32,000 bases of DNA, from the NCBI GenBank assembly GCA_017484165.1, contig JAFUTP010000028.1:1-32000 (forward strand), in the 5' to 3' direction. This DNA is from Cardiobacteriaceae bacterium. GTDB taxonomy: Bacteria; Pseudomonadota; Gammaproteobacteria; Cardiobacteriales; Cardiobacteriaceae. The first letter of the stretch is position 1, and each line of letters begins with the position of its first letter. The position numbers were made by a program, and so were the translations under genes. Below, in pieces: positions 2 through 12,003 of this stretch. The notes under the pieces are model-generated. The model worked only from the letters and a program-made list of their open reading frames with translations. It did no database searches and had not been told where the DNA came from.

Positions 2-607
2 TCAACATTTTCGTCAGTTGATGATAGCTTCGGCGAATCAGTTGCATCTGCAAAATATGCAACAGAGGTAAGTTTATCAGCATTAGCAGTGTTAAATGGT
101 GCTGGCGAACTCGCAACCCTCGCAAGAACTGGAAAAACTGCAGAAAAAATAGTAAAGAGTGCAGATAATTTTGCAGAAGGGGTGGGGAAATCACCCGCAA
201 CAGAAGCACAAAAAGCACGGCAGATTGATATAAATGCTGGTCTTGATGGCGAGATGGCGGGGCAACCTATTCAACTACACTCTTTAAGCAATTACGAAGC
301 TCGCGTCTGGTATCTAGAACAGGAAAGAAATATTCCAAATTTGCTTGATAAATCCGCTTCCTTAAAAACACAATCGCAACAAGCTGTTGAAGCGCGCAAT
401 GAAATCAGAACTGCTGCAAGAGAACTGATGGCTGATAGAGTAGAAGCCGAAAGGTTATACCGAGAAGAACCAAATCGCGATTGGGATTATTTTGCTGATA
501 AATATTCAAAACAAGGATATTCTGGCGATGCGTTATACCAAAAAATAATTGATAGCTCTCAAAAATCCCGAAAAGAGGTCAATGAAAAATTGGGAATTAC
601 GAAATGA
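2..607 (+). CDS. 3' end of a larger polymorphic-toxin-like gene (5' part lies upstream of the window); variable C-terminal domain follows a DNFAEGVGK junction
   Basis: The frame starting at nt 2 has no stop until TGA 605-607, so track ORF 89..607 (GTG start) is only the tail of a longer gene. The junction at 164-190 recurs at 1047-1073 ahead of an unrelated C-terminus. A small ORF follows with an ATGA overlap. I recognised no catalytic family by eye. Confidence 0.6.
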   Translation, partial: STFSSVDDSFGESVASAKYATEVSLSALAVLNGAGELATLARTGKTAEKIVKSADNFAEGVGKSPATEAQKARQIDINAGLDGEMAGQPIQLHSLSNYEARVWYLEQERNIPNLLDKSASLKTQSQQAVEARNEIRTAARELMADRVEAERLYREEPNRDWDYFADKYSKQGYSGDALYQKIIDSSQKSRKEVNEKLGITK

Positions 608-951
608 AACCAATACAAATTATTGAAACATTCGATCGGAAAAATAACAGATTTATATTATCTATTTGTCATATTGATTACGATGTTAGTGATACAGTCG
701 CCCAAATAATGTCTAACAAATACGGTGATATTATCACAGAGAAGTTGGACAATCTTTGGGGGACTTTAATCATTATGCAAAGTAATGAGTTCAAATATGT
801 AATTTCCTATGATGAAGATTATAGAGATAATGAACTACATATTTCCTACAATGAAAATTATATAGATAATAAAAACACGATCTTTCATAATGAATTAAAA
901 AATAAATTAGTGGCTATCACTGACGAGCTAAATTTAGCCTTAAATCAGTAG
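604..951 (+). CDS. putative cognate immunity protein (115 aa, no recognisable family)
   Basis: Its ATG at 604 overlaps the toxin stop (ATGA at 604-607). It is a small acidic cytoplasmic-looking protein. A 12-bp-stem terminator follows directly. The assignment rests on position only. Confidence 0.5.
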   Translation: MKPIQIIETFDRKNNRFILSICHIDYDVSDTVAQIMSNKYGDIITEKLDNLWGTLIIMQSNEFKYVISYDEDYRDNELHISYNENYIDNKNTIFHNELKNKLVAITDELNLALNQ

Positions 952-956
952 TAACA

Positions 957-999
957 TACAAGCGTAAGTTTTCTTACGCTTGTACTTTATTTAATTTTT
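957..999 (+). terminator. rho-independent terminator after the toxin/immunity pair
   Basis: Perfect 12-bp stem: tacaagcgtaag (957-968) pairs with cttacgcttgta (973-984), loop tttt. A T-rich tail ctttatttaattttt follows. Confidence 0.55.
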
Positions 1000-1025
1000 C
1001 TAAAAAAAAATTATGAAATAAATAG

Positions 1026-1520
1026 ACAAATACACAAAATGGCGAAGATAATCTTGCAGAAGGGGTGGGGAAAAATGCTGGGAAGATTGAGAATATTTCT
1101 CCAACACCAGCGGTTGATAACATTCCCGCCTCCAGACCTGATTTTTATGTCAAACCAAATGGGGATGTTATTCCGAGCACGGGGTATCGCTATATGAAAA
1201 GCGAGCACGCGAAGAAAACTATGGAAACTATGTCTGCTCCTGGTAGTTACTTTGGATTTACAAAATATGAAACAGGCAGTGCAGCACGCGATGCTTAGCA
1301 AATCGCCCCGCAATGGAGTGATGCAAGATTGCGGGGTGAATTTGATACCTTACAGGTTATAGATGATATGCGAGTTCCTAGAACTTTTGGTGATCAAGGT
1401 CCTGATTTAGAACCTTTTACAACATCATATCCAGAGTATGGCAAAGGAGGACAGCAGCAGTTTATATATGATAAAGGTGATATTAAATTTATCAAGGTTG
1501 ATTTGTTGGAGGATGAATGA
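1026..1520 (+). pseudogene. orphan toxin C-terminal cassette, promoterless, interrupted by one in-frame TAG (1296-1298)
   Basis: Track ORFs 1065..1298 and 1329..1520 are in the same frame and are separated only by TAG 1296-1298. The frame is open back to 1026 with no ATG or RBS. Nt 1047-1073 are 26/27 identical to 164-190 (both encode DN[F/L]AEGVGK), and the sequences are unrelated after that. Confidence 0.55.
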
Positions 1521-1750
1521 CCAATAATTCACTTGAAATTGCTGAACAGCTTTTATATTTGCTTCAAAAATACTCTCCCAACAAAAAAGAAATAATAAGC
1601 GAGATTGAGCAAAATAAAAATAATTTTAATACATATCTGCCTGAATATATAAAGCATTGTCTAGCAGAAATAGATAGGGCAAATAATCTACATACAAACT
1701 ATTCTTCTGAAGATTTAAAAATAGTTAGAAGTCTAGGCTCTTTTCTATAA
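1517..1750 (+). CDS. putative immunity protein of the orphan cassette (77 aa)
   Basis: Its ATG at 1517 overlaps the stop of the orphan toxin frame (ATGA at 1517-1520), the same coupling as 604-607. It is small and unrelated to the 604..951 product. A hairpin follows. Confidence 0.45.
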   Translation: MTNNSLEIAEQLLYLLQKYSPNKKEIISEIEQNKNNFNTYLPEYIKHCLAEIDRANNLHTNYSSEDLKIVRSLGSFL

Positions 1751-2936: not shown

Positions 2937-3056
2937 GGCGTATCTAAAATTAGCTTTAGTTCTATTTTTTTACTCTTATCATCCTGAACGCAGCGAAGGA
3001 ACTACCGATAGAGATTTTTCGCCTACGGCTCAAAATGACGAATTTTTAGACACCAC
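2937..3056 (-). repeat. MITE-like nested palindromic element, full-length copy in reverse orientation
   Basis: The reverse complement aligns along its whole length with copy 6787-6898. The outer ends are ggcgtatcta and tagacacc. The inner arms are tcatcctgaacg and caaaatgacgaa. It lies in the divergent yfaE/MATE intergenic region. Confidence 0.8.
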
Positions 3057-3095: not shown

Positions 3096-4427
3096 ATGTG
3101 CAAAGAACTTCTTCCCACAATCCAACTTGCTCTACCGATGATTTATGCGCAACTGTTAGGTTATTCGCAGGCGGTGGTTGATACGGTTATGGCGGGGCGG
3201 CATAACTCGCTGACTTTGGCAGCGGTATCGCTTGCCTCGCAATTATTTGCTTTGATTTACTTGCTTTTTAACGGTATTGCGATTGGTTTTGCCGCGCAAT
3301 TTTCCCGTTATAACGGAGCTGATGACCGCTCAAATTTGCGCTTTTGTTTTCATCAGGGCTTATTTATTTTTACCGCGATTGCGGTTTTATGTGCATTTTT
3401 AATTTATCTCGCGGCATTTTTACCGCCTTTTTTCGGCACAAAACCAGAAATTGCCCGCGAATGCAAAAACTATCTTTTAATTTTGGCTATCCCCGCAGGA
3501 GTTTTGATGTTTGCTTCGATTGGCAGCGCATTTTTGCAGGGGATGGCATATCCGCGCAGCGTCAATATTTTGATGACCGCCCTACTTCCCGTAAACATCC
3601 TCGGTAACTGGATTTTTTTATCTTTTACCGATTTAGAAGCGGCAGGAATGGCGATTGCCACGGGAATTTGTTATTTGCTCTACGCCATCGTTTTATTCAC
3701 AATACTTGCCAAATCGCCCAAGTGGAAGATTTATCACCTCTTCCGTGCTCCGTTTATTTTCGATCGCCGTGCCTGCCTACGGTTTTTACTGCTTGGTTTA
3801 CCGATTGGCATTGCAATTGTGCTGGAAGCGGGATTGTTTTCCTTTATCGGGATTATGGCTAGCCGTGAAACCGCGGAAATCACTTCGGCAAATCAAATTG
3901 CGGTGAATTTCATTTCAATAATTTTTATGGTGCCGCTTGGTATTTCTTCGGCACTGACAATCCGTGTTGCGCACGCTTTCGGGCAGAAAAATTATCAGGC
4001 GGTAAAAAATCGCGCAATTGGCGGACTGTTACTGAGCGCTGGTTTTATGAGCTTTGCCGCTTTAATGAATTTTCTCTTGCGGCAAGAAATCGCCGCGATT
4101 TACACCGCCGATGCCGTAATTATTGTTCTCGCGGCAAAAATAATGCTGGTTGCTTGCGTATTTCAGATTTTGGACGGAGTGCAAGTTGCCTCTTCGGGGA
4201 TTTTGCGTGGGCTTGCTGATACCGCAATTTTGATGCGTTTTGCGATTTTCGGTTATTGGATTGTCGGTCTGCCCGTCGGTTTGATTTTTGCTTATGGCTT
4301 GAATTATGGAATTCTCGGACTCTGGATTGGCTGCGCGCTGGGACTGGGAATATTTGCGGTTTTAGCATTAGGGCGAGTTTTCAAGCAAATCAATAAATTA
4401 GCGAGCGTGTCAAATTCGTCATTTTGA
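3096..4427 (+). CDS. MATE family multidrug efflux transporter (NorM-like)
   Basis: 443 aa with about 12 predicted TM segments. The N-terminus LALPMIYAQLLGYSQAVVDTVMAGR is typical of MATE proteins. The last 4 codons and the stop lie inside a repeat element. Confidence 0.85.
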   Translation: MCKELLPTIQLALPMIYAQLLGYSQAVVDTVMAGRHNSLTLAAVSLASQLFALIYLLFNGIAIGFAAQFSRYNGADDRSNLRFCFHQGLFIFTAIAVLCAFLIYLAAFLPPFFGTKPEIARECKNYLLILAIPAGVLMFASIGSAFLQGMAYPRSVNILMTALLPVNILGNWIFLSFTDLEAAGMAIATGICYLLYAIVLFTILAKSPKWKIYHLFRAPFIFDRRACLRFLLLGLPIGIAIVLEAGLFSFIGIMASRETAEITSANQIAVNFISIIFMVPLGISSALTIRVAHAFGQKNYQAVKNRAIGGLLLSAGFMSFAALMNFLLRQEIAAIYTADAVIIVLAAKIMLVACVFQILDGVQVASSGILRGLADTAILMRFAIFGYWIVGLPVGLIFAYGLNYGILGLWIGCALGLGIFAVLALGRVFKQINKLASVSNSSF

Positions 4428-4649
4428 GCCGCAGGCGAAAAATCTCTATCGGCAGATCCTTCGCGACATTCAGGATGACGAGTGGGCGTATCTACAAAAT
4501 TCGTCATTTTGAGCCGCAGGCGAAAAATCTCTCGGCAGATCCTTCGCTACATTCAGGATGACGAGTGGGCGTATCTACAAAATTCGTCATTTTGAGCCGC
4601 AGGCGAAAAATCTCTATCGTCAGATCCTTCGCGACATTCAGGATGACGA
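4416..4649 (+). repeat. head-to-tail triplication of the MITE inner hairpin module
   Basis: Units lie at 4416-4481, 4501-4564 (2-nt deletion) and 4584-4649. They are separated by the identical 19-nt linker gtgggcgtatctacaaaat (4482-4500, 4565-4583). The period is 85 then 83 bp. Confidence 0.85.
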
Positions 4650-4667
4650 GGGCATACGCTCCTATAA

Positions 4668-6785
<2,118 letters not shown>

Positions 6786-11598: not shown

Positions 11599-12003
11599 TT
11601 ATATCCAGTTTTCCAACTGCAAACCTTCTACTCTTTCAAATTCTCTTGTGTTGTTGGTTACCAAAGGAAGATTTAACGAACGAGCGTGAGCTGCAATCAA
11701 TAAATCCATTGCTCCAATAGGAGATCCCTTCCTTTGCAAAGATGCACGAATATCCGCATAATGCCAAATAGCCTCTTGTCCGAACGGCAAAATTTGTATC
11801 AATTCAAAAAATTCAAATAACAACGAGCTGTTCTTATCTATTGAACTAGATTTTTTCACTCCGAAGGCTAATTCACAAGCGGTAATATTCGAAATAACAA
11901 CTTCTCCAACTTTGTAGTTACTAAATGTTTCAACTACTTGTTTGTATTTTCTGTTGATGATATAAATACATGTATTGGTATCTAACATACAACGAATTTT
12001 CAT
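11599..12003 (-). CDS. vapC: PIN-domain toxin VapC (tRNA(fMet) endonuclease type)
   Basis: MLDTNTCIYII...GAMDLLIAAHARSLNLPLVTNNTREFERVEGLQLENW closely parallels Shigella/Salmonella VapC (MLDTNICIF...VTNNTREFERVGGLRTEDW). Its start overlaps the vapB stop (ATGA). Confidence 0.9.
   Translation of the reverse strand: MKIRCMLDTNTCIYIINRKYKQVVETFSNYKVGEVVISNITACELAFGVKKSSSIDKNSSLLFEFFELIQILPFGQEAIWHYADIRASLQRKGSPIGAMDLLIAAHARSLNLPLVTNNTREFERVEGLQLENWI

Follow-up and report, generated by a model that had tools for sequence, protein, structure and literature searches.

A probable polymorphic toxin island with a new junction motif at a contig end of an uncultured rumen Cardiobacteriaceae bacterium

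Three kinds of described locus come closest to the element reported here. In the Maf islands of Neisseria (MafB/MafI and mafB-CT orphans, CT being the C-terminal toxin module; PMC4287609) a toxin gene of medium size precedes a coupled immunity gene, behind which lie start-less orphans that keep only a short junction motif. In CdiA-CT/CdiI loci a short demarcation motif separates the constant region from a variable CT, the CT is coupled to an immunity gene, and orphans lacking a promoter share the sequence before the junction; the Rhs/YD-repeat toxins with their orphan rhs-CT/rhsI modules likewise have displaced CT/immunity pairs downstream. Here we describe a locus of this general build at the start of contig JAFUTP010000028.1 (Cardiobacteriaceae bacterium, assembly GCA_017484165.1), the first 32,000 nucleotides of which were analysed as a whole and are called the window. 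Bases 2-1790 are probably the distal end of a polymorphic toxin island of an uncultured rumen Cardiobacteriaceae bacterium, which is the best explanation of the whole. Four observations carry this conclusion: the modular anatomy, a mosaic of sequences around a short junction, the membership of both CTs in toxin-domain families, and a conserved pairing of the second CT with a small open reading frame (ORF). Maf, CdiA and Rhs loci show the same layout in textbook form. The novelty lies in the junction motif, which belongs to no described class, in the host lineage and in the cargo, as neither CT family has a curated model and one of them has no recognisable fold either.

Two of the features by which polymorphic toxins are generally recognised (Zhang et al., 2012) are found here: a constant region is joined to unrelated CTs, and orphans share the pre-junction sequence, the latter also on the related contigs L001 and L005-8. 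The links to CdiA and Rhs run through the cargo: the family of the first CT (CT1) occurs on bona fide CdiA proteins (P0143 and a protein of a Ralstonia megaplasmid), and CT1 and likewise the second CT (CT2) are found on RHS proteins, immediately behind the DPxGL core end. However, the VENN/PT-VENN motif, DUF637 and the filamentous haemagglutinin (FHA) repeats of CdiA were not found in the 62-75 residues before the junction here, nor were the PxxxxDPxGL motif and RHS repeat of Rhs proteins, and while CdiA loci have a cdiB partner, none lies nearby in the window, where the flank consists of core genes. The link to Maf runs through sister loci of the window, which carry a gene of the PF06255 family and an Ntox50+MafI2 pair. 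In contrast, the Neisseria Maf junctions read VSGDF, VKYDT and (W)DWVKN (PMC4287609) and the junction here reads KS.DN[F/L]AEGVGK, so that the junction sequence that marks MafB is absent, and the host is a rumen Cardiobacteriaceae bacterium rather than Neisseria. An initial annotation, made by reading the DNA without database searches, had matched the junction peptide to no known motif, and indeed it is none of VENN, (Q/E)LYN, PxxxxDPxGL or the Neisseria MafB motifs VSGDF/VKYDT/DWVKN; a literature search for the motifs returned nothing relevant. From its contig end inwards, the island reads as follows (MAG, metagenome-assembled genome; ART, ADP-ribosyltransferase).

2-190, + strand: 3' end of the constant (pre-toxin) region, of a type termed class B; an open frame cut by the contig end and terminating in KSADNFAEGVGK
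155-190, + strand: conserved junction island, the proposed recombination site, encoding KS.DN[F/L]AEGVGK; delimited by identity across copies
191-256, + strand: 22-codon linker SPATEAQKARQIDINAGLDGEM, common to the Ntox50 toxin P0003 of the same MAG
278-607, + strand: CT1 domain (about 107 aa, all-alpha) with its stop codon; phmmer core at query aa 93-199 (window 278-604)
604-951, + strand: putative immunity gene 1 (115 aa), whose ATG overlaps the main-frame stop (ATGA), indicating translational coupling
957-984, + strand: intrinsic-terminator-like hairpin (12 bp, loop of 4, T-rich tail)
1046-1073, + strand: junction remnant heading the orphan cassette (..EDNLAEGVGK), 96% identical over 28 nt to 163-190
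1074-1520, + strand: orphan CT2 toxin module, from its translation; inactivated by a TAG codon, with a predicted ART/NADase-superfamily fold
1517-1750, + strand: putative immunity gene 2 (77 aa, intact), ATGA-coupled, with a GGAGGA Shine-Dalgarno sequence
1754-1784, strand not assigned: 13-bp hairpin, facing the convergent RNase_T/dnaQ-like gene
1804-2604, - strand: RNase_T/dnaQ-like gene (Pfam label), convergent with the island

The initial annotation had read the locus as the 3' end of a polymorphic toxin gene, coupled to a putative immunity gene and followed by a silent orphan CT/immunity cassette, and this outline is supported by the anatomy listed above and by the junction mosaic. The main frame runs without a stop from base 2 up to the TGA at 605-607 (201 codons), and AEGVGK ends at 190, leaving 138 codons behind the motif where about 139 had been counted. 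Both small ORFs with their ATGA overlaps (115 aa at 604-951 and 77 aa further on), the 12-bp-stem terminator at 957-984 and the second hairpin are where they had been placed, and so is the AT-richness, which is strongest over the two small ORFs (GC 0.28-0.30, compared with 0.44-0.50 at 3-8 kb; immunity gene 1 by itself, 0.28-0.33). NCBI lists a 'partial' hypothetical protein of a Cardiobacteriaceae MAG (locus tag IJ566_02525) that is identical to the 201-aa fragment, and because its start coincides as well, window base 1 is the contig end. The related contigs derive from ruminant gut metagenomes, one sister MAG being labelled 'Water deer reticulum'. Immunity gene 1 is preceded by a weak Shine-Dalgarno sequence (GGGAA, 6 nt upstream); its putative role is assigned from position and coupling only, because no relative was detected. 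Neither putative immunity protein has an obvious N-terminal hydrophobic leader when the sequences are read by eye, which suggests that the targets are cytoplasmic. The hairpin at 1754-1784 probably acts as a terminator in both directions, sealing the island off from the convergent gene.

The constant region is the least accessible part of the locus, with 62 aa available in the window and 75 aa in P0002, its counterpart in a second Cardiobacteriaceae MAG (contig L002). Window 2-190 and the same region of P0002 are 83-91% identical, and the P0002 CT differs. No match to the constant region was obtained in Pfam, even at E<=10, or in NCBIfam, and no further relatives were found among 5.8 G protein clusters (a word-indexed search with the fragment and with a constant-region profile), the GTDB species representatives, the JGI metagenomes or IMG/VR. 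A scan of GTDB genomes for the upstream part returned only the MAG of P0002, which is likewise cut, and the contigs reached through exact-protein look-ups of the immunity gene and of the dnaQ neighbour were all either shorter than the window or broke off in the same region. Four assemblies carry the window gene or its L002 counterpart, and none extends past the constant region. On L002 the CT of the main gene (2-717) is split by a frameshift into frames 2-406 and 355-717.

The evidence for cassette exchange lies at the junction. An 18-nt sequence, GCAGAAGGGGTGGGGAAA, occurs exactly at 173-190 and 1056-1073 and nowhere else in the 32 kb; the chance expectation is 0.01, and none of 100 shuffles yielded two copies. 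By blastn the repeat extends within the window to 28 nt at 96% identity (163-190 and 1046-1073), and the island as a whole aligns over 36 nt at 94-97% with L001 and L005-8. Five junction copies from three assemblies were compared, all anchored at the Lys codon of the junction: the window main gene, the window orphan, the main gene of L002 (P0002), the Ntox50 toxin of L001 (P0003) and the orphan of L005-L008. The last 30 nt of the junction are 77-97% identical in all pairs, or 90-97% when L002, in which the motif reads AGDVGK, is left out, and the flanks fall to 20-40%. Which side diverges depends on the pair.

Window main gene and L002 main gene: upstream 87-97% identical, downstream 31-40%
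Window main gene and P0003: upstream unrelated, downstream 93-97% for 66 nt (the linker SPATEAQKARQIDINAGLDGEM), then about 20%
Window orphan and L005 orphan: upstream unrelated, downstream 87-96%
P0003 and L005 orphan: upstream 72-97%, downstream unrelated

Thus, the copies diverge completely on one side or the other, and the switch of sequence at AEGVGK that the initial annotation had proposed to look for in related genomes is seen directly. P0001, P0002 and P0003 have the junction in common but end in different CTs. Over the linker, the 93-97% nucleotide identity to L001 holds over positions +0 to +66 and then gives way to about 20%. At the level of sequence, such a mosaic bears the signature of cassettes that are exchanged through recombination at a short, conserved island. 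The constant regions fall into two types, class B in the main genes of the window and L002 and class A in P0003 and the L005-8 orphans, which beyond the motif are not significantly similar (Smith-Waterman scores compared with shuffles, p=0.08). Support independent of these alignments comes from the assemblies, none of which extends past the constant region: the megahit contig L010 (k=141), 99.9% identical to the window, stops exactly 141 nt upstream of base 190, that is one k-mer before it, as would be expected of a de Bruijn graph with a branch point at the base that follows AEGVGK.

The initial annotation had recognised neither CT. Pfam indeed has no model for either, but they are not oddities of this lineage, since each is part of a large family found on RHS, CdiA, LXG and other carriers. 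For CT1, a phmmer search of 1.84 G cluster representatives (clusters at 50% identity) returned 971 representatives related to the fragment, and among the matches listed nearly all cover query residues of about 93-199. The family signature reads LSNxEARxWYLxQE...LRNxxRTxAR.LM.DR...PN.TW...SSQRSR.SVN..LG, and the window copy retains all seven of its seven invariant residues. Of 160 local domain hits, 136 end no more than 5 aa from the C-terminus. Fusion partners among 68 longer carriers are RHS repeats (6), the DUF637/two-partner secretion (TPS) domains of CdiA (3) and DUF4280 (2), along with LXG, PT-HINT, the core of extracellular contractile injection systems (eCIS) and phage MuF. On the Ralstonia megaplasmid the CT1 domain terminates a 3374-aa CdiA-like protein that is followed by an overlapping 81-aa ORF and a TpsB gene. 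CT1 thus appears, from its sequence relatives, to be a large polymorphic-toxin domain family of RHS, CdiA, LXG, PAAR-like and MuF carriers that is absent from curated libraries. It has no Pfam or NCBIfam model, and the best hit of a profile search against the PDB had E=0.57. Its AlphaFold (AF2) model comprises seven helices (predicted local distance difference test, pLDDT, 94.4) and found no Foldseek match in the PDB, the best E being 2.5. Three CT1 homologues (P0092, P0095 and P0102) carry three tandem CT1-type copies, of which the first two read SATHSH instead of SSQRSR, and P0095 (1961 aa) additionally carries hydrolase, GNAT and glutamine-deamidase domains. This hints that some of the tandem copies have a non-catalytic or regulatory role.

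In the orphan cassette, the second frame (1026-1520) begins with ..GEDNLAEGVGK after in-frame stops, keeping about 10 constant-region codons, and its translation bears out that it continues into a C-terminus unrelated to CT1. It had been described as lacking both a start codon and a ribosome-binding site. The latter holds, since no usable Shine-Dalgarno spacing precedes it, but an in-frame GTG does exist at the Val of AEGVGK (1065), and gene callers use the same GTG in the intact homologue P0152. The cassette would therefore be silent for want of a usable ribosome-binding site and promoter rather than of a start codon. The best sigma-70-like match in the area (1023-1052, TAGACA-18-GATAAT, 10/12) takes the junction Asp-Asn codons GATAAT as its -10 box; sigma-70-like sites are not above chance here (6 found, 9.8 expected), and we claim no promoter for the orphan. 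In addition, an in-frame TAG at 1296-1298 replaces a Tyr that is conserved in the family (ARDA[Y]QI), so that the second frame reads as a pseudogene as well as being promoter-poor. Apart from this codon the window copy retains 12 of the 12 invariant family residues, which suggests that the decay is recent.

A word-indexed protein search returned 80 homologues of CT2, some of them fused to RHS core ends (P0204; many directly after DPLGL), to PT-HINT (P0167) or to PT-TG (P0178). The same MAG also encodes an intact paralogue (P0153), which is carried by a different scaffold and is 82% identical where the domains align. The family invariants include R21, W-S-D and E95; no Pfam match was found. A structural model was made of this 82%-identical intact paralogue (AF2, pLDDT 95.9). 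Its top Foldseek match is Tne2 (6b12_A), an NADase effector of the type VI secretion system (T6SS) of P. protegens, with a probability of 0.99 and a TM-score of 0.54-0.59, followed by Tpt1/KptA, TreTu, RhsP2, PARP14 and DarT; the E-values are weak (0.07-7). Tne2 and the ART toxins TreTu, RhsP2, DarT and Tpt1 are all NAD+-utilising folds of the ART superfamily, whereas sequence identity between CT2 and Tne2 is about 11% and the Foldseek E-value only 0.07. The modelled CT2 fold thus resembles that of the NAD+-utilising ART superfamily and is Tne2-like, compatible with an NADase or a transferase. In L005-8 and L015, the small ORFs found behind CT2-type toxins are 34-44% identical to immunity gene 2 (BLASTP E=9e-11); the similarity of this gene to the ORF behind a CT2 in Haliovirga is not significant. 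Since homologous small ORFs follow CT2-type toxins, the pairing is conserved, across three loci.

From these observations we infer toxicity, immunity, a mode of recombination and a route of delivery. The expressed gene would end in CT1 and be exported on an N-terminal scaffold encoded beyond the contig end, intoxicating neighbouring cells, and the 115-aa product of 604-951 would neutralise CT1 in the producer. Toxin heads would be swapped by homologous recombination at the 28-36-nt island, either between direct junction copies or with incoming DNA. A crossover of the direct copies at 173-190 and 1056-1073 (883 nt apart) would remove CT1 along with immunity gene 1, leaving the constant region fused to CT2. 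CT2, as a putative NAD+-using ART/NADase-like toxin, and its 77-aa immunity gene would form a spare module that is silent and decaying, the nonsense codon having been gained later. With CT2 dead and immunity gene 2 intact, the latter may still protect against CT2-armed kin or neighbours.

As to the scaffold, we tentatively favour a Maf-type one, that is Sec export and a MafA/MafB-type system of a new class, at a likelihood a little short of even. L005, L006 and L008 carry an ORF that matches PF06255, 'Neisseria toxin MafB', over model positions 46-150 (E=4e-13), with Imm42 behind it and then, directly, the AEGVGK-type CT2 orphan; this linkage of the cassette to a mafB-like gene is seen in these sister contigs, not in the window itself. 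On L001 the Ntox50 toxin with AEGVGK lies between a SUFU immunity gene upstream and a gene of the MafI2 family downstream. The sister cassettes thus carry known toxin and immunity families (Ntox50+MafI2, SUFU, Imm8, Imm42). Ntox50 is a known CT of Neisseria MafB (PMC9970974; PMC3482391), Moraxella and further gamma-proteobacteria are reported to have Maf systems (PMC7738311), and start-less orphans that retain the junction motif only are typical of class-3 Neisseria islands (PMC4287609). The context of the sister contigs, judged on sequence, points to a known Maf system rather than to something new. Imm42 and Imm8 are listed with Ntox18 and Ntox7 by Zhang et al. (2012; PMC3482391); here Imm42 follows the PF06255 gene in L005 and Imm8 the CT of P0002 in L002, and no Pfam match assigns Ntox18 or Ntox7 to either toxin. 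The L002 CT contains the string ADGTRGYRF, which resembles the Ntox7 motif 'DGx..hR' (Imm8 follows; no Ntox7 match in Pfam), and Imm8 is the predominant Ntox7 immunity family (PMC3482391). On L005 (190-1530) and L006 (241-1581) the PF06255 ORF starts at model position 46, its frame being open upstream with neither start codon nor signal peptide, and both contigs end within the gene that precedes it. L005 also has an orphan-like pair (3876-4465) behind its CT2 cassette, made up of an 81-aa toxin fragment and a 114-aa ORF with an ATGA-type overlap, with no junction remnant and no Pfam matches.

Several observations weigh against the reading as a toxin island, those on the constant region and on the PF06255 gene against a Maf type in particular. 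The 62-75 aa of constant region give no PF06255 signal (Pfam, E<=10), and neither BLASTP nor Smith-Waterman comparison with shuffles (p=0.43-0.96) detects similarity between the constant regions and the PF06255 protein of L005. AEGVGK is missing from that PF06255 gene, which is itself truncated at its 5' end. For immunity gene 1, no homologue turned up in Pfam, in NCBIfam or by tblastn of plasmids, and the gene is unrelated to the small ORF that follows CT1 in Ralstonia. A minority of proteins carry CT1 internally or in triplicate, which is unusual for a catalytic toxin. Moreover, with 28 nt of homology the window orphan comes close to the minimum length at which RecA-dependent recombination works.

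It is possible, though somewhat unlikely, that the toxin instead rides on a scaffold that is neither Maf nor CdiA nor Rhs, such as an N-terminal domain specific to rumen Cardiobacteriaceae lineages that uses AEGVGK as its CT-exchange site. The constant region would fit such a scaffold, as it has no Pfam or NCBIfam match, has relatives only in two MAG lineages across the searched collections and is unlike the local PF06255 protein, and the junction motif falls outside the known classes. However, 62-75 residues are too few to exclude a divergent known domain further upstream, and AEGVGK orphans are physically linked to the PF06255 gene and to Maf-type toxin/immunity modules. A bolder combination of claims, namely that the 36-nt island is a portable adaptor serving at least two unrelated scaffolds (class A and class B), that the window scaffold is undescribed and that CT1 is a widespread toxin with both a new fold and a new activity, strikes us as doubtful when all parts are taken together.

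A further alternative, compatible with either scaffold, removes the active gene from the window altogether and in that respect also weighs against our reading: the frame at 2-607 could be another orphan with a long 5' remnant, and the whole segment a string of orphans far from the active gene. Orphans of sister loci do keep up to 77 constant-region codons (P0003), as compared with 62 here, the contig edge would hide any upstream stop, and the counterpart P0002 has a frameshifted CT. Yet the frame stays open for 62 codons here and for 75 in L002, right up to the contig ends, CT1 keeps every invariant residue, and the class-B constant sequence is confined to these two edge genes and absent from all demonstrable orphans. 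We therefore consider this explanation improbable. That the pairs are plain two-gene toxin-antitoxin or addiction modules unrelated to secretion, with a motif shared through gene duplication, is very improbable indeed, for although small overlapping gene pairs resemble type II toxin-antitoxin operons and a PIN-type pair is present elsewhere in the window, the toxin gene comes first and is fused to a longer upstream protein, both CT families sit overwhelmingly at the C-termini of exported RHS, CdiA, LXG and PAAR-like proteins, and the cross-strain mosaic reflects cassette exchange rather than duplication.

If the window does hold the distal end of a polymorphic toxin island, cassette-swapping islands, perhaps of Maf type, extend to uncultured rumen Cardiobacteriaceae. 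The new junction motif offers a precisely mapped exchange site that is short, sharply bounded and directly visible in assembly graphs. CT1 is a concrete target for finding a new toxic activity, and CT2 adds a second unannotated family, modelled as a Tne2-like NAD+ toxin. Such loci would be systematically missing from MAGs, as contigs break at the junction.

Elsewhere in the window, scans with Rfam and for tRNAs were empty. Three tandem copies of an 83-85-nt unit lie at 4412-4690, downstream of a MatE gene (3096-4427), with an inverted copy upstream of that gene at 2979-3046. The L010 contig, which is 99.9% identical and comes from another assembly, is exactly 83 nt shorter at this array, corresponding to one unit fewer, so that the unit is either an element resembling repetitive extragenic palindromic (REP) sequences with copy-number variation or the site of an assembly collapse. 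Finally, a 134-aa PIN-domain ORF at 11599-12003 (- strand) has a 77-aa upstream partner, as read from the gene table of the colinear contig L010, and the two likely form a VapBC-type toxin-antitoxin pair.

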